A stretch of 64,000 nt of DNA, taken from Spirochaetia bacterium (GTDB lineage Bacteria; Spirochaetota; Spirochaetia; SZUA-6; Bin103). Numbering within the stretch: the stretch's first letter is position 1; the number at the start of each line of letters is the position of its first letter. Shown piece by piece: positions 49,992 through 56,586 of the stretch. Both the position numbers and the translations under genes were made by a program. Under the pieces are notes generated by a model. That model worked only from the letters and a program-made list of their open reading frames with translations, ran no database searches and had not been told where the DNA came from. The stretch spans positions 5,568,001-5,632,000 of the forward strand of contig CBDBDQ010000005.1 in the NCBI GenBank assembly GCA_965203905.1, in the 5' to 3' direction.

Positions 49992-51689
49992 CTACGGCAT
50001 GCTGGCGCCGAGCTGTTCGGCCGCGACCTGCATCAGCTCCTCGCCTCCGGCCTGCTTCCACTCCTCGATGTAGGCGTCCCACTCCGAGATGTCGCGCTCG
50101 CCGAGGATGAACTCCAGCTCGCGCTGCAACTGCAGGTCCTTGATGCGGGTCGCAGTGCTCGCGTCGAGGTCGATCAGCAATTCGAAGTCGCGCACCCGCG
50201 GCATCGGGATCACCATCTGGTCCAGCAATCCGCCCGCCCAGTCGCGCGCCTTGGTATCCCGAAGCGGGTCGTCGTCGGCGTACGGCGGGGCTTCATACGT
50301 CTTCCAGCGCAACGAGATGCTCAGCACGTTCCAGTTGCCGAGCGGCAGATACTCGGGATCGTGAATCCCGGGGTGATCGTCGGCGAAGGCGAGCGAGTGC
50401 AGGCCGGTCTCCGGGTAGAAGTGGCGCTCGCCCGAGCCCGGGAAGATCGCCTCGCCGCCGCCCTCGATCACCTCGATGTTGCCCTGGTTGGGATAGGTGA
50501 TGAAGTCATGGAAGTGCATGATGCGCTTCATGAGTCCCTCGTCCTTCTCCAGTGACTTCGGAGAAATCAACAGCCGCCCGGGGCGGCCACCCGGCCCGTA
50601 CGCGCCGCCGCGCCCGTCGTCGGACATCGGCGGATCGATCGGCTGCCAGACATCCGAGACCGCCAGGTTGCCGTCGTGCGCGGTGGTGTTCTCGAAGATC
50701 AGGTTCCAGCCCGGGTAGTACACCATGCCGATCTGGTCGTTCATCGAGTAGGCGGTGAAGTTCTCCCACGAGATGGTGAACCAGTCGGGATGCAGCACAC
50801 CGGCGTCCCGCAGACGCTTGAGCCACAGCACGAAGCTCTTGCTGGTGCCGTCCAGGTTGGGGTGGTTGATCACGCCGTCCTTGACGTTCCAGCCGGGATG
50901 GCCGTACATGGTGCGGAACGGCTCCAGCATGGTGAAGCCGTTGCCATCCCCTGCGCCGCCCATGAACCAGGTGTCGGCGCTGCCGGTGCCGTTGGGATCC
51001 TCACGCACCACGCGCTGGGCGAATTCGAACAGCTCCGACTCGGTGCGTGGCGCATCCATCCCGAACTGCCCCAGCCAGTCCTTGCGGATCTGCAGTCCCC
51101 AGTTGTCCGCGAACACCGGGTAGCGCGGCAGCCCGTACATCACCCCGTCGTCGCTGCTGGTGGCCCAGGCCTTGTAGTCCTTGGTGAGGAACTGCTGCCA
51201 GGTCGGCAGGTATTGCAGGTAGGGCTCCACGTTGAGCAGCAACCCGTCTTCGTGCAGCTTCTTGGCAACGTTCTTCTGGCCGAAGCTGAGCGTGGTGATG
51301 GCGGGCGGATCGCCGGCGATGAAGCGCGTCGTCAACTGGTTTACCAGATCATCGCCGGGCAGAAAGTTGATCTCGATGTTGGCGTTGAGCTGCTCGTTCA
51401 GATACTCGTTGATGGGATCGTCCGGTACCGGGGTGAACCAGTAGCCGCTGGACAGAATCTCGAAGTCGTAGCTCTTGCTCATATCGTCGTAATCCCAGGC
51501 CGACGGGTCCGGGCGCACCGGTATCAGCGGCAGGGTGTCGGGCAAGTCCAGCTCCGGCATTGCCTCGCCGCCGCCGCCGGCGGTGCCGCCGCCCTCTTCC
51601 TGGCCGGGGCTGGCACCGAGATGTACGGCCGCCAGCAGCAGGGCCACCGCCACGGGCAGCCCGATCAGGTTTCGAATCGTCACTTTCAC
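49992..51689 (-). CDS. Carbohydrate ABC substrate-binding protein (LplA-like)
   Basis: Signal peptide, MYGLP, IRKDWL, DPNGTG, FILGERDISEWDAYIEEWKQAGG. Confidence 0.88.
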   Translation of the reverse strand: MKVTIRNLIGLPVAVALLLAAVHLGASPGQEEGGGTAGGGGEAMPELDLPDTLPLIPVRPDPSAWDYDDMSKSYDFEILSSGYWFTPVPDDPINEYLNEQLNANIEINFLPGDDLVNQLTTRFIAGDPPAITTLSFGQKNVAKKLHEDGLLLNVEPYLQYLPTWQQFLTKDYKAWATSSDDGVMYGLPRYPVFADNWGLQIRKDWLGQFGMDAPRTESELFEFAQRVVREDPNGTGSADTWFMGGAGDGNGFTMLEPFRTMYGHPGWNVKDGVINHPNLDGTSKSFVLWLKRLRDAGVLHPDWFTISWENFTAYSMNDQIGMVYYPGWNLIFENTTAHDGNLAVSDVWQPIDPPMSDDGRGGAYGPGGRPGRLLISPKSLEKDEGLMKRIMHFHDFITYPNQGNIEVIEGGGEAIFPGSGERHFYPETGLHSLAFADDHPGIHDPEYLPLGNWNVLSISLRWKTYEAPPYADDDPLRDTKARDWAGGLLDQMVIPMPRVRDFELLIDLDASTATRIKDLQLQRELEFILGERDISEWDAYIEEWKQAGGEELMQVAAEQLGASMP

Positions 51690-52059
51690 TTGAAATCCCT
51701 CCTCTGGGGTTTCTTCTGCCGGCCGAGCGCTCGCTCGTGCCGTGCAGGTCCTTGTTGCATGCCGGCGCGCACTCCTTGCGGCGCCGCCACTGACGACATG
51801 GTGCCGTCACTATCCCTTGATCGCTCCCAGGTATACCCCCTTGATGAAATGCTTCGGGTGCGGCTCTTTTAGGACGACCTCTATCTTCAGTTTGATGCGT
51901 TAATTGGGGGTTCTGTCGGACGCCCGGCGCTGGTTCAGCGGCATACGCTTGGGGAACGGGGCCATAGGCTGCCACGTATCGTGCTGGCGGGCATAGCAAG
52001 GGCTGGACAAAACCCACCACGACTCGGTACGGTGCCTCCGTTGTCAGCGGAGGGTGCCG

Positions 52060-52959
52060 ATGAATGCCAACAGCGAGGGCGTGCGCAGCGCCGGCAGAAC
52101 GTTCAGTGAGGCTGAACTGCGGATCGTCTGCCAGATCGTTGCCGCCGGTGGCCGCCTCAGTCGTACGCAGTTGATGGTGCAGGTGTGTCGGCGGCTGCGC
52201 TGGCAGCGCCCGAACGGTGCGCTGAAGGTCCGCGAATGTCGTGATCTGTTTGCAATGCTGCAGCGCAGCGGTCGCCTGCGCCTGCCGCCGAAGCGCAGCA
52301 CCGGGCGCCCGCTGGGCTCGCACACCGAGGTGCCGTGCACGCCGGCTGGCGAGCCGGGACGGCCAGTATGCGGCACCGTCGGGCAGTTCGGCAGCGTACA
52401 CCTGGAGCCGGTCACGACCGCCGGCGAGCAGCGCTGGTGGCGGGAGCTGGTGGGCCGCTATCACTACCTGGGCTACCGGGTGCCGTTCGGTGCCCAACTG
52501 CGCTACCTGGCGTTCGTCAGCGAGCCCACCACGACGCTGGTGGCGGCGTTGCAACTGTCCTCGCCGGCGTGGCGGCTGGCGGCGCGCGAGCGCTGGATCG
52601 GCTGGGACGAACCGACTCGGACACGCAATCTGCAACGGGTGGTCAACAACAGTCGCTTCCTGGTGCTGCCGTGGGTCCGGGTGAAGAACTTGGCCAGCCG
52701 CCTGCTGGCGCTGCTGGCCGGGCGGCTGGCTGCCGATTGGCAGCAGCGGTTCGCGGTCGAGCCGCTGCTGCTGGAGACGCTGGTGGATAGCGGTCGCTTT
52801 GCCGGCACCTGCTACCGGGCTGCCAACTGGATCGAGTTGGGCGCCACGGCAGGTCGGGGACGCATGGACCGCGCCCATACCCGTCATGGGCAAGCGCCGA
52901 AGCGGGTTCTGGTGTATCCTCTGGTGGCCGACGCGCAACGCCGGCTGGCGCAGGGCTGA
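52060..52959 (+). CDS. DUF4338 / Druantia DruA-like protein (IS passenger)
   Basis: YHYLGY, LRYL, SPAWRLAARERWIGW, VVNNSRFLVLPWV, LLETLVD, GTCYRAANW, GRGRMD; GGAGG RBS. Confidence 0.88.
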   Translation: MNANSEGVRSAGRTFSEAELRIVCQIVAAGGRLSRTQLMVQVCRRLRWQRPNGALKVRECRDLFAMLQRSGRLRLPPKRSTGRPLGSHTEVPCTPAGEPGRPVCGTVGQFGSVHLEPVTTAGEQRWWRELVGRYHYLGYRVPFGAQLRYLAFVSEPTTTLVAALQLSSPAWRLAARERWIGWDEPTRTRNLQRVVNNSRFLVLPWVRVKNLASRLLALLAGRLAADWQQRFAVEPLLLETLVDSGRFAGTCYRAANWIELGATAGRGRMDRAHTRHGQAPKRVLVYPLVADAQRRLAQG

Positions 52960-54573
52960 GTGATGGGCGCTCCTCAGGCGTGGGCGAGTGAGCCGGCCGC
53001 CGACCCCTTCGCTGCCACGCGGGCGCGGTTCGAGCACCTGCTGCGAATAGCCAACGACGTAGAGACGCGACAGATGAAGCACAGTGACCTGGAGCGACTG
53101 CTGACCAGCGAAGGTCAGGAACTGTTACGGCAACTCTACCAGAACTGTCTTGACCAGCAGGCCGAGGCGCAGGTCAGCGCAGAGGTGGTGGATGCGCAAG
53201 GCCAGCCGCGCACGCGCCAGCGGACCCAGCAGCGCCAGTTGGAGACGATCTTCGGCACCGTCCAGGTAGCGCGCACCGGCTACGGGGCGGAGGGGCAAGC
53301 GAGCCTGCATCCGCTGGATGCGCAGTTGAACCTTCCCGCCGAGCGCTACTCGCTGGAGGTGCGGCGGCGAGTAGCGCTGGAAGCAGCGAAGAACTCGTTT
53401 GACGAGACGGTGGAGACGCTCAATCGCTGCACCGGTGCCAAGATCGGCAAGCGGCAGGTGGAAGAACTGGTCAGTCGGGCGGCGCAGGACTTCGACGCCT
53501 TCTACCAGCAGCGGCGCCAGCAAGCGTCTGCGGAGCAGACGGTCGCCGACCACGGAGCGGTCGAGCCGCAGGCGACTGAGGATGCCCTGCTGGTGATCAC
53601 CAGCGACGCCAAGGGCGTGGTCATGCACCAGCAGGACCTGCGACCTGCCACGCGCGCGGCCAGCGAGCGCACGGCGCGTGGCAAGCTGGCCACGCGCCTG
53701 AGCAAGGGCGAGAAACGCAACCGCAAGCGCATGGCCACGGTGGCGGTCGTCTACTCGGTGGCCGCCCACGTGCGCACGCCGCAGCAGATGCTGGCGCTGC
53801 TGGCGCGCGCTGAGGACGCCGAGCAGCAACGCTCGCCGCCGCGACCGCGACCGCAGCACAAGCGCGTGTGGGCGAGTCTGAAGCAGGAACCTCGGCAGAT
53901 GTTGCAGGAGGCGTTCCGAGAAGCGCGCGAGCGCGATCCGCAGCAGCAGCAGACCTGGGTCGCGGTGGTCGACGGCAACCGGACGCAGTTGGACCTCCTG
54001 GCAGAGCTGGCCGCGCACCACGGGGTGCAGGTGACCATCGTGCTGGACATCTTTCACGTGCTCGAATACCTGTGGAAAGCCGGCCACGCCCTGGAGGCCG
54101 AAGGCAGCCAACGGTTGGAGCAGTGGGTCTTGCAGCGCCTGGGACGTATCCTGGAAGGCCGCGCCCGCTCGGTGGCTGCCGGCATGCGCCGGAGCGCCAC
54201 CAGGCGCCGCCTGACGAAGCGGCAGCGGCGACCGATCGACCAGTGCGCCAACTACCTGCTGAAGTACCAGGGCTACCTGGCCTACGACCGCTACCTGGCC
54301 GCTGGGCTGCCGATTGGCTCGGGCGTCGTCGAAGGCGCCTGCCGGCACTTGGTCAACGACCGCCTTGGCATTACCGGTGCGCGCTGGCGACTACGCTCGG
54401 CCGAAGCGGTACTGCGCCTCAGGGCGCTGCGCAGCAGCGGCGATTTCGACGCCTACTGGACGTTCCACGAGCAGCAGGAGTGGGAGCGTACCCACCGCCA
54501 ACGTTACGCTGAAGGCAACGTGCCGTCGCTGGAACACCCGAACCCCGTGCCGCACCTGAGACTCGTCCGGTAG
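52960..54573 (+). CDS. ISKra4-family DDE transposase
   Basis: LETIFG, SDAKGV, VVDGN, DIFH (DxxH of Mutator-like transposases), GLPIGSGVVEGACRHLV. Confidence 0.9.
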   Translation: MMGAPQAWASEPAADPFAATRARFEHLLRIANDVETRQMKHSDLERLLTSEGQELLRQLYQNCLDQQAEAQVSAEVVDAQGQPRTRQRTQQRQLETIFGTVQVARTGYGAEGQASLHPLDAQLNLPAERYSLEVRRRVALEAAKNSFDETVETLNRCTGAKIGKRQVEELVSRAAQDFDAFYQQRRQQASAEQTVADHGAVEPQATEDALLVITSDAKGVVMHQQDLRPATRAASERTARGKLATRLSKGEKRNRKRMATVAVVYSVAAHVRTPQQMLALLARAEDAEQQRSPPRPRPQHKRVWASLKQEPRQMLQEAFREARERDPQQQQTWVAVVDGNRTQLDLLAELAAHHGVQVTIVLDIFHVLEYLWKAGHALEAEGSQRLEQWVLQRLGRILEGRARSVAAGMRRSATRRRLTKRQRRPIDQCANYLLKYQGYLAYDRYLAAGLPIGSGVVEGACRHLVNDRLGITGARWRLRSAEAVLRLRALRSSGDFDAYWTFHEQQEWERTHRQRYAEGNVPSLEHPNPVPHLRLVR

Positions 54574-55623
54574 CGCCCCAGCTTTCCACCGCTCACCCGC
54601 GCCCGCCAGCCGCCGCCTGCGTACCGGCTCATCTGCGTCCGTCACGCTCCTGACTTAACTTGCCGTCCGCAGCCCCCATCGCAACGCGGAATCCCCGCCG
54701 TAGCCATGAGTAATACATGCTCTCCCCACCACGCCTATGCCCTCCCCCGCGTCGTCGCAAAAGAGCCGCACCCAAATGCTTCTGGACGAATGGATAGACG
54801 CACAACAACGGCACGATTCCCACCACCACCGTAGTCATTTTCAGCGACTCGGGATTGATCTGGCGGCGCCCCATCACCTGGTATACCTCGCTCTGAGCGT
54901 AAGCGCCCAGCAGGATGTGGCGCAGGATGAGCTGCAACGGCCAAAGCGCGTCATCGCTCAGGTAGACCAGCGCATCGAACCAGGAATTCCAGTGCTCCAC
55001 GATGCTGAACATGCCGATCGCCGCCAACGCCGGCGCGGTCAGCGGGGTGATGATCCAGACCAGCATCTGCAGGTGACCCGCTCCGTCGATGCGGGCCGAC
55101 TCCACCAGCCCCTCCGGCAGGTTCTCGATGAACACCTTGATCACCAGCAGTCCGAAACTGTGCCCCAGGAAGGGCAGAATCATCACCCAGAAGTTGTTCA
55201 GCAGCCCCAGGCGCCGCATCACCAGGTAACTGGGGATCAGCCCGCCGGGAAAGATGATCGACGCCAGCACCAGCAGCAGAATGATGCCGCGCCCCGGCAG
55301 GCTGCGAATCGACAGACAGTAGGCTCCCACCAGGGTAAGCACCAGCGCCATGGCCGGCCCTATGGTGCTGCGCAATACCGAGATCATGAACGCGCGCCAC
55401 ACCGCGGTCTGCCCCAGTATCCGCTCGTAGCCCTGCAGCGTCGGCTCCAGGGGGATGATCACGAAGTAGTTGCGCTTGATCAGCTCGGTCTGGGTGGTCA
55501 TCGACATGCCGATCACGTACACCAGCGGGAACACCGCGGTCACGGCGATCAGGGCGACGATCAGGTGTATCGAGACCTGGTAGGCACGTTCGGCCGGATT
55601 CGAGTAGAGGACCATGCAGCCCC

Positions 55624-56586
55624 CTACCAGATCCCGCGGCCCGTGTAGCGCCGGGCGACGTAGTTGGCCGCCACCACGGTGAGCAGGCCGAAGAACGACT
55701 GGAACAGGCCCATGGCCGCGCCCAGGCTGAGCTCCAGTTGGCGCAGCCCGACGCGGTAGATCCAGGTGTCGATGATGTCGCCCACGTCGTACACCGCCGG
55801 GTTGTAGAACAACAGCACCTGCTCGCCGCCGGCGTACAGGATGAAGCCGAAGTTCAGGCACAGCACGAACGACACCACCGGCAGGATGGAGGGAAAGGTG
55901 ATGTGGCGGATCCGCGAGATGGGACCGGCGCCGTCGATCACCGCGGCGTCGTAGAGTTCCGGGTCCACGGTGGAGAGCGCCGCCAGGTAGATGATGGTCC
56001 CCCACCCCAGCTCCTTCCAGATCGCCGAGCCGATCAGGATCGGCCGGAACGCGCCCTGGCTGAGCAAGAACTCCATCCGCTCCAGGCCCACGAACACGCG
56101 AATGTTGTTTATCAGCCCGTTGGCGGAGGAGAACACCGCGAACACGATCCCCCAGATGATCACCCAGGAGAAGAAGTGCGGGATGTAGACGATGGTCTGG
56201 GTGGTCTTCCTGAACCACTGGATCGCCATGTCGTGGAACAGGATCGCCAGCAGGATCGGCGGCAGGAACCCGAATACGATGCGCAGCAGGCTGATCTCGA
56301 AGGTGTTGCGGATCACCCGCACGATGCCCCGCTGGCTGAAGATTTCGACGAAGTTGCCCAGGCCGACCCACTCGCTGCCCCACACGCCGCGGCCGATGCT
56401 CAGATCCGTGAACGACACCACCAGCGACAGCCCGATCGGCCAGTAGCGGAACAGCAGGTAGTAGGCCAGCACCGGCAGCAGCAGCAGGTACACGGTGCGG
56501 TGCTCGTTGATGCGCTCCAGGAGGGTCTTCCTGCGGCGTGCCGGCAGCGCCGGCGCCGCCACCGAACTGGCGGGCGTGGCTGGCAT
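55624..56586 (-). CDS. Carbohydrate ABC permease (LplB-like)
   Basis: EWVGLGNF, YIPHFFSWV, WKELGWGTIIYLAAL, YDAAVIDGAG. Confidence 0.92.
   Translation of the reverse strand: MPATPASSVAAPALPARRRKTLLERINEHRTVYLLLLPVLAYYLLFRYWPIGLSLVVSFTDLSIGRGVWGSEWVGLGNFVEIFSQRGIVRVIRNTFEISLLRIVFGFLPPILLAILFHDMAIQWFRKTTQTIVYIPHFFSWVIIWGIVFAVFSSANGLINNIRVFVGLERMEFLLSQGAFRPILIGSAIWKELGWGTIIYLAALSTVDPELYDAAVIDGAGPISRIRHITFPSILPVVSFVLCLNFGFILYAGGEQVLLFYNPAVYDVGDIIDTWIYRVGLRQLELSLGAAMGLFQSFFGLLTVVAANYVARRYTGRGIW

Follow-up and report, generated by a model that had tools for sequence, protein, structure and literature searches.

The stretch of DNA described here—the window in the following—comprises 64,000 nucleotides (nt) of the genome of a Spirochaetia bacterium (GenBank assembly GCA_965203905.1, contig CBDBDQ010000005.1; C5:5568001-5632000 of an 8.0 Mb genome in 5 contigs). 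A 2918-base-pair (bp) insertion sequence (IS) of the ISKra4 family spans its positions 51856–54773. This element is an active two-gene insertion sequence: upstream of a DDE transposase it carries orf1, a gene whose product matches the Pfam family DruA/DUF4338 and is predicted to join a winged-helix domain to a GNAT domain resembling that of Mom from phage Mu. Judged from the comparisons below, orf1 is a constant partner that co-evolves with the transposase and not loose cargo.

On both flanks the IS is bordered by a perfect 9-bp direct repeat, AAATGCTTC, read directly at 51847–51855 and identically at 54774–54782. Its left inverted repeat (IRL, GGGTGCGGCTCTTTTAGGACGAC, 51856–51878, plus strand) and its right inverted repeat (IRR, 54751–54773, minus strand) agree at 21/23 positions when compared, the first 15 nt, GGGTGCGGCTCTTTT, being identical. 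A GGG at the start of both ends and a target duplication of 9 bp are ISfinder features of the ISKra4 family. All internal features lie on the plus strand: a putative promoter of the orf1–transposase operon (52004–52033, with TGGACA at 52004–52009, an 18-nt spacer, and TACGGT at 52028–52033), a Shine–Dalgarno (SD)-like GGAGGG read 5 nt 5′ of the orf1 ATG (52049–52054), orf1 itself (52060–52959, 299 amino acids, aa), the transposase gene (52963–54573; 536 aa from ATG 52963, 537 aa from GTG 52960), and a C-rich non-coding stretch inside the right end (54574–54750). The transposase is assigned by its match to the NCBIfam model NF033572 for ISKra4 (E 8.6e-106; 354.5 bits, cut-off 205).

This genome holds four complete copies of the IS with 99.2–100% identity and a fifth one that is split by another IS. 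In all four complete copies both frames are open (301 and 537 aa in their longest reading). Each of the five has its own 9-bp duplication—AAATGCTTC, AAACGAAAA, AATTCAATT, GAACCATAT, and GTATTACTT/GTATGATTT—of which four are perfect and the last agrees at 7/9 positions; the five are 67–89% A+T on a contig of 66% G+C. An earlier reading of the letters alone (the sequence-only reading) had described a complete and apparently recent element at this position, with inverted repeats matching at 21/23 and a perfect 9-bp target-site duplication, and this description is borne out in every detail, now with the near-identical copies added to it. In the fifth copy, the interruption lies within orf1 and is a 2590-bp insert with an IS3-like frame (G000:C5:5380352-5382941, G000 being this genome), whose ends have 3 nt in common.

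The empty site is also seen. In a metagenome DNA run (X3), one contig joins position 51846 to 54774 with 9 shared letters and is the unoccupied site in a related strain. Another contig of this run stops at the IS and carries the flank of a further genome copy (copy D). More generally, the IS part of window 51500–55100 is found at near identity in public runs of 11 studies; several of the runs are labelled sponge or coral metagenomes, and three are recorded as RNA. In two metatranscriptome libraries from different studies (X17 and X18), contigs lie over both genes and bridge their junction (52825–53494 and 52488–53154), which is consistent with expression of both genes—and no proof of a single transcript, since contigs cannot show one and DNA may contaminate such libraries. 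Contigs cover 25/30 bins of the element in X17 and 11/30 in X18, whereby uncovered parts carry no meaning.

The window copy has inserted 12 codons before the stop codon of an ABC sugar-permease gene on the minus strand (54629–55648 plus 51800–51855). Removal of the IS and one repeat in silico restores the permease end ...FVQKHFIKGVYLGAIKG-stop; with the IS present, the permease frame continues for 50 IS-encoded residues in place of the native tail FIKGVYLGAIKG. By the same insertion, the downstream solute-binding-protein gene (51689–49992) is now split off from the permease genes. Insertion upstream of sigma-A promoters is described for some ISKra4 members in PMC3942029; an informal look by eye at the five insertion flanks of this genome saw no consistent promoter.

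About 200 bp of non-coding DNA inside each end had been left unexplained by the sequence-only reading. The terminus GGGTGCGGCTCTT itself is common to 18/20 relatives, the best repeat being unrelated in the other two. On the left, the stretch from IRL to orf1 measures 150–330 bp in all relatives and is little conserved in sequence, and the length differences among the copies of this genome lie upstream of orf1. Just 5′ of the ribosome-binding site (RBS), a TG[GA]ACA-N17/18-TAnnnT element recurs in 6/6 divergent left ends that were aligned. We propose it as the operon promoter solely because its position is conserved; a scan for the sigma-70 consensus returned 0 promoter-like sites and did not flag it. 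With this promoter-like element and the RBS, the left end is largely explained. On the right, the C-rich spacer is poorly conserved and specific to the lineage, measuring 200–226 bp only in the window's own clade, 160 bp in one relative (L066), and 58–70 bp in most relatives. An Rfam scan of 51700–54950 gave no match at E ≤ 1.

Junction and inheritance of the gene pair

The stop codon of orf1, TGA, occupies 52957–52959, and the transposase frame opens at the very next base (GTG 52960, then ATG 52963). For orf1, the longest frame starts from GTG 52054 and encodes 301 aa; the start at ATG 52060, which gives 299 aa, is the one that matches the starts in relatives. For the transposase, ATG 52963 is probably the start, because the junctions of relatives (36 unique, 30 of them with stop, 3 nt, and start) put it there. 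The layout is conserved among these 36: exactly 3 nt separate the stop from the start codon in 30, orf1 ends with TGA in 33, and 31 carry an SD-like 4-mer in the final 21 nt of orf1, typically as ...GGGAGnnnTGAnnnATG. Spacers of 0, 1, or 2 nt occur in three junctions, two of them out of phase. The arrangement reads as the classic layout for translational coupling, with a predicted RBS for the transposase embedded in the last codons of orf1.

A profile scan of species-representative genomes yielded 79 loci related to orf1 in 44 assemblies, labelled with at least eight phylum-level groups. At 64 of the 79, an ISKra4-type transposase frame starts 0–124 nt after the orf1 stop. Most of the remaining loci show something else in its place: at L054 a group II intron lies between orf1 and the transposase, at L078 the ISKra4 frame is decayed, at L082 and L088 the neighbours are IS66-type, at L083 and L087 the neighbour is a 615-aa frame with weak IS1182-like matches below the model cut-off, and L091 adjoins a TniQ/HerA-like gene. 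Three loci (L034, L044, and L081) are cut by a contig end, and at L086 the open frame downstream of the orf1 relative could be assigned no identity. The intron at L054 (L054:5874-7964) has a gene for a 504-aa reverse transcriptase/maturase.

The two proteins also diverge together. For 32 unique pairs with a full-length transposase, distances between orf1 proteins and distances between their transposases are correlated (r = 0.985, slope 1.12), and 0/2000 permutations of a Mantel test reached this correlation. The ratio of nonsynonymous to synonymous substitution rates (dN/dS) is 0.15–0.32 for orf1 and 0.19–0.32 for the transposase in 7/9 pairs, which indicates similar purifying selection on both. 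One further pair (L013/L077) gives 0.57 for orf1 and 0.30 for the transposase; in the last (L017/L033), where substitutions are nearly lacking, both genes stand at about 0.65. That the two genes form one unit, as the sequence-only reading had suggested from their abutment, is supported by the conserved junction, the adjacency at 64/79 loci, and the co-divergence.

In the reverse direction, 41 related genomes were surveyed for ISKra4-family transposases (112 matches at E ≤ 1e-20, coordinates cross-read by hand). All 16 matches of at least 279 bits, with frames of ~460–600 aa, have a DUF4338 gene directly upstream, as do two more partial pairs. Among matches of ~180–240 bits (frames of ~435–490 aa), none has a DUF4338 gene directly upstream. 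By this distribution, an orf1-type gene marks one clade of the ISKra4 family, and the term "passenger", under which the gene had first been described, does not fit: it is rather an obligate, co-evolving partner, which in other IS families is a domain of the transposase itself.

The ISKra4 group corresponds to the p-MULT 4 Mutator-like transposases of Guerillot et al. (2014, PMC3942029), who mention four elements with unidentified extra genes. In the element described here, the extra gene is identified as a predicted winged-helix plus Mom-like GNAT gene, which is constant in the clade with long transposases (~530–560 aa) and absent from the shorter clades of related genomes.

Structure of the orf1 protein and its likeness to Mom

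With PF14236 (DruA/DUF4338), orf1 residues 108–275—residue numbers count from ATG 52060—match profile positions 43–227 of 297 (E 6.6e-46, 157.2 bits, gathering score 27). Hence, the family assignment of the sequence-only reading stands, and the motifs that it quoted (SRTQL...VCRRLRW, HYL, SRF, and GTCYRAANW) are present in the translation and conserved in relatives.

An AlphaFold2 model of orf1 was calculated from a 42-row alignment and reached a mean predicted local distance difference test (pLDDT) score of 85.2. It consists of an N-terminal winged-helix domain (about residues 8–79, 52081–52296) and a GNAT-fold domain (about residues 107–298, 52378–52953). In Foldseek, Mom of phage Mu (8bv8) ranks first for this model with E 2.6e-5. 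VIA-align places it on 167 residues of Mom at Z 14.5 and a root-mean-square deviation of 3.4, with other GNATs at Z ≤ 12.4. Among the aligned chains, taken from the top Foldseek matches, 695/997 reach Z ≥ 8, and the 50 VIA-align entries listed, nearly all of them GNAT-type acyltransferases, span model residues 109–295. The C-terminal domain is thus predicted to be a GNAT fold whose nearest structure is Mom. For the N-terminal domain the picture is weaker: residues 1–105 folded alone give a pLDDT of 75.6, and the best VIA-align matches have Z values of only 4.7–5.8, weak but uniformly winged-helix (MCM, Stn1, SAMD1-DNA, MarR/AsnC-type, and Z-alpha).

On the level of families, a Pfam scan at E ≤ 10 finds DruA in all 42 family members and Mom in 10/42 (best E 2e-4), and no other GNAT or acetyltransferase family matches any of these relatives. 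Set against a single Mom sequence, the orf1 family profile aligned over 17 columns (E 0.069), and a sequence-only profile search of solved structures gave nothing meaningful, with chimallin as the best match at E 0.068. The profile alignment pairs orf1 H135-Y136 with Mom H48-Y49, S213 with S114, D243 with D139, Y252 with Y149, and N256 with N153. Mom residues are numbered here as in PMC7261163; those of PMC13219725 are higher by 10. Mutating the aligned Mom residues impairs cofactor binding or activity (PMC7261163), and the active site of Mom is given as H58, Y59, R111, S124, D149, R151, and Y159 in the numbering of PMC13219725. According to the latter work, Mom is an anti-restriction enzyme that takes Gly-tRNA(Gly) as its donor and places the glycine on N6 of adenine in double-stranded DNA. 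Within 60 diverse representatives of the orf1 family, H135 and S213 are invariant, Y252 is conserved in at least 90%, and Y136 in less than 90%.

The two proteins share an HY, an NxxS at the start of helix 3, a D before the last core strands, and a GxxYxAxN(W/F)xxxG signature, and by our own reading of the alignments a Gly-rich coenzyme A (CoA) loop is seen in neither. They differ in sequence, with an identity of about 16–23%, in domain composition—orf1 bears an N-terminal winged helix where Mom has a helix-turn-helix (HTH)-like insertion—and in genetic setting, orf1 being encoded in insertion sequences and Mom in a phage late operon. The likeness to Mom that the sequence-only reading had named is borne out in structure, as its proposed Foldseek comparison with Mom and GNAT structures returned a GNAT fold with Mom first; in sequence, it amounts to weak Pfam matches of 10/42 relatives and to the H, Y, S, D, and Y of Mom falling on conserved residues.

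The module in other transposase families and in Druantia

In this genome, 11/11 genes with PF14236 lie inside IS copies, five of them ISKra4-type and six IS66-type. The IS66-type element measures 2591–2593 bp and occurs in six copies of 100% identity with unrelated flanks (e.g. G000:C5:7577415-7580007), none of which is inside the window. Its transposase gene (541 aa) comes first, and behind it lies a DUF4338 gene of 335 aa that shares 43% identity with orf1; the inverted repeats of this element start with GTAAAC (GTAAACATTCGG), and its duplications are 8 bp. Beside one IS66 copy lies a repeat of ~1.7–2.1 kb (here G000:C5 7575700-7577414) that is present in >40 diverged copies of 84–93% identity and has a 428-aa frame without a Pfam match. 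That the IS66 element with DUF4338 might target a highly repeated element was considered and rejected, since the flanks of its six copies are unrelated.

A phmmer search of 1.84 billion cluster representatives (50% identity) returned 7843 matches at E ≤ 0.001 and 750 at E ≤ 1e-30. Longer homologues were sought at E ≤ 1e-5, which gave 688 proteins, and the best 120 of these 688 were classified by BLAST to seeds: 118 of the 120 carry transposase domains, of the Tn5-type IS4 (75), ISAzo13 (25), other IS4 (9), IS66 (6), and IS630 (3) families. The fused modules are 39–54% identical to orf1, and many of the fused proteins are found on contigs of 2.4–3.3 kb, the size of a collapsed IS. Except in IS66, where it is C-terminal, the module is N-terminal. 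The domain order in the fusions equals the gene order of the split forms, with the IS66 exception included. Relatives of this genome furthermore hold an ISAs1-type fusion, which is without the winged helix, and as a separate gene the module adjoins IS66 and weakly IS1182-like transposases. Taken over both forms, at least seven IS families have transposases with the module beside or fused to them. Orf1 and the fused transposases (IS4/Tn5-type, ISAzo13, IS630, IS66, and ISAs1-type) have this module in common, but the window element carries it as a separate gene that would be coupled by translation.

For the domain, a FastTree was calculated from 64 rows thinned from 158, whereby 18/75 Tn5-type, 8/25 ISAzo13, and 9/29 ISKra4 rows were kept. 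Over this tree—which excludes the true DruA row for its short profile coverage and the window's own row by the thinning—the label of the transposase family changes 12 times, with a possible minimum of 9, a mean of 41.4 for shuffled labels, and 0/200 shuffles as low. IS66 rows occupy three or more separate positions and ISKra4 rows two or more, and "solo" genes are nested in IS-linked clades. By this pattern, the module has switched its transposase partner a handful of times and then stayed with each.

Genes kept next to the transposase within the ends of an IS and inherited with it are familiar from IS21 (IstB), IS66 (TnpA/TnpB), and IS200/IS605 (TnpB), with known roles such as ATP-dependent target delivery and RNA-guided nuclease activity. 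None of these accessory proteins is known to be a GNAT-fold enzyme. The likeness is one of organization, and the accessory roles in these families do not predict that of orf1.

The Pfam name of the module points to the Druantia defence system, in whose type I druA stands in an operon with druB, druC, druD, and druE, the last encoding a large DUF1998 helicase (PMC7251935). DUF4338 has also been called a GNAT domain and is fused to some DndF defence proteins (PMC10853773). Within this genome, no dru genes stand beside any of the 11 PF14236 genes—the sequence-only reading, which had noted no other dru genes, was right in this respect—and the neighbours of the window IS are ABC-transporter genes. 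The two PF09369 (DUF1998) frames of the genome (835 and 652 aa) are more than 100 kb away from any PF14236 copy, and the PADLOC models for DruA give weak partial matches to orf1 (E 2.6e-4 and 7.5e-4). A genome of the same genus (G005) does hold a Druantia type-I-like operon (L095, G005:C3:38000-57000), with a 417-aa DruA followed by frames of 989 and 361 aa and a DEAD-helicase frame of at least 1739 aa. Its DruA covers the whole Pfam model (positions 3–295, E 1.2e-84), whereas orf1 matches only profile positions 43–227 and is without druB–E neighbours. Between this DruA and the IS family, hhalign aligns 173 columns at 24% identity and a probability of 93%, and at the positions of the Mom-like H and S the one DruA sequence has other residues. 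Hence, of the supposed link between IS cargo and Druantia evolution, the common DUF4338 core is retained, whereas the relation beyond it is weak. For the IS-borne majority, the label "Druantia protein DruA" is misleading.

Proposed function and its alternatives

The reading that we favour, though tentatively and with less than even confidence, is that orf1 is catalytic, works together with the transposase, and acts on nucleic acid by means of an activated acyl or aminoacyl donor. In this proposal, the operon would supply orf1 first and the DDE transposase second, and orf1 would be an accessory enzyme that takes part in transposition. Its winged helix would recruit it to nucleic acid, where the GNAT domain would attach an acyl or aminoacyl group drawn either from aminoacyl-tRNA, the kind of donor that Mom uses, or from acyl-CoA. 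The likeliest acceptor in the nucleic acid would be a DNA base in or close to the element or its target, and the resulting mark would regulate or assist transposition, for example, by marking ends, by target immunity, or by timing the reaction. Within this composite, modification of a DNA base is the single most likely chemistry. The roles that the sequence-only reading had suggested for the gene, namely to shield transposition intermediates, to regulate transposition, or to mark targets, are hypothetical.

Several observations weigh against this proposal. Since the substrates of GNAT enzymes are very varied, likeness of the fold leaves the substrate unfixed. In sequence, the window protein has no match to Pfam Mom (PF25680, gathering 27.1 bits) at E ≤ 0.1, and a profile–profile comparison of the orf1 family with an alignment of 38 Mom homologues by hhalign is weak (probability 1.7%, E 0.03), if collinear over 176 columns. 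In the active site, D243 is conserved in less than 90% of the 60 representatives, the essential R101 (R111) of Mom lies opposite a gap, and R141 (R151) has no clear counterpart. Most of the HTH-like insertion of Mom (~175–209), which is needed for Mom activity, is missing from orf1, leaving gaps of ~28 residues. Moreover, it is not obvious why a resident IS should need to modify DNA against restriction, and four of the 79 loci (L084, L085, L089, and L090) hold relatives of orf1 without a transposase nearby. A complex prediction for orf1 and the transposase scored 0.00 and weighs neither way.

A wider version of the DNA-modification proposal would see here a large class of bacterial DDE transposons, across families, in which a Mom-like enzyme writes a covalent acyl or aminoacyl mark on DNA bases during or after transposition, possibly from charged tRNA. 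Such a mark would serve the element as an epigenetic handle on its own ends or target sites, be it to control copy number, to confer target immunity, or to time transposition, and DruA would be an offshoot of this DNA-marking module in defence. Taken as a whole, we regard this version as speculative and rather unlikely.

Next to it stands the thought that orf1 is a protein acyltransferase, acting on the transposase or on a host nucleoid or transcription protein and thereby tying transposition to the metabolic state or switching the transposase, which we hold to be rather unlikely. Most characterised GNATs do acylate proteins or small amines, protein and polyamine N-acetyltransferases reach Z values of 11–12.4, not far below Mom, and fusion to a transposase would place a protein substrate in cis. 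On the other hand, the module is, by our own reading, without the Gly-rich Q/RxxGxG/A acetyl-CoA loop and has the consensus PWVxVxNLASxxL; its closest likeness in structure and sequence is to a DNA-modifying enzyme, and its winged-helix domain is of a nucleic-acid type.

That the protein might be no enzyme at all and act as a DNA-binding, architectural, or target-choice factor on a GNAT-like scaffold, like accessory proteins of other transposons, seems improbable to us. Such a role would suit the winged helix, the basic conserved loops (KRxGRPxGS and GRGRMDR), and the AT-rich 9-mer targets (67–89% A+T in a genome of 66% G+C). It would leave the conservation of the Mom-catalytic equivalents—H and S invariant, Y nearly so, in the 60 representatives—without a reason, and the ISAs1-type fusion does without the winged helix altogether. 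In addition, the ISKra4-type and IS66-type elements have partners that are 43% identical and yet share no likeness in their terminal repeats, which makes it improbable that the winged helix recognizes the ends of a particular element.

Of equally low probability in our view is the idea that orf1 is cargo, whether selfish or of benefit to the host: an anti-restriction or anti-defence DNA modifier that helps after horizontal transfer, or a Druantia-related defence module. It draws on the anti-restriction role of Mom itself (PMC13219725), on the Pfam family name, and on the DUF4338 fusion to a DndF defence protein (PMC10853773). For cargo, however, neither fusion into the transposases of five families with a fixed domain order nor co-divergence with the transposase at r = 0.985 would be expected. 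Nor do dru genes adjoin any of the 11 copies, the PADLOC DruA match is weak (E 2.6e-4), and in the one true DruA that was compared, the Mom-like H and S are missing.

Finally, the 3-nt spacer keeps both frames in phase and so would allow occasional readthrough of the TGA (TGA in 33/36 junctions, the 3-nt spacer in 30/36) to a low-level DUF4338–transposase fusion as an active or regulatory form, reminiscent of the natural N-terminal fusions in IS4, ISAzo13, and IS630 transposases and compatible with the other explanations, but this is very improbable, as the conserved SD-like sequence and a start 3 nt past the stop already explain the spacing as translational coupling, the spacers of 0, 1, and 2 nt put two junctions out of phase, and no readthrough signal was identified at the junction.

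In the usual picture, an IS consists of a transposase flanked by two repeats; this element adds an enzyme-like module that is as constrained as the transposase. If the proposal of a Mom-like DNA modification were true, a chemical step would be added to transposition, the newly defined class of tRNA-dependent DNA aminoacyltransferases would widen, and a first functional lead for DruA of Druantia would be at hand. The split two-gene form is the version most open to experiment, since it allows the module to be given or left out in trans, and it lets the evolution of the module be compared with that of the transposase. Our literature search, with subscription journals, ISfinder, and TnPedia outside of it, found no work that connects the DUF4338 module with Mom or with transposons. 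The new points are the ISKra4 and IS66 forms in which the module is a separate gene coupled by translation, together with the figures on co-divergence and selection, an association confined to one clade, the evidence for an unoccupied site, and the comparison that sets the module apart from a true DruA.

For annotation, the Pfam name "Druantia protein DruA" leads defence-system finders and annotators to mislabel what are mostly transposon genes. Two long proteins illustrate how varied the carriers of DUF4338 are: one of 1301 aa (L096, G012:C1:1149000-1155500), in which DUF4338 occurs twice and an AAA match is weak and stays under the Pfam cut-off, and one of 972 aa (P0160), in which a Ser/Thr kinase domain is followed by DUF4338 and then by a Tn5-type transposase.

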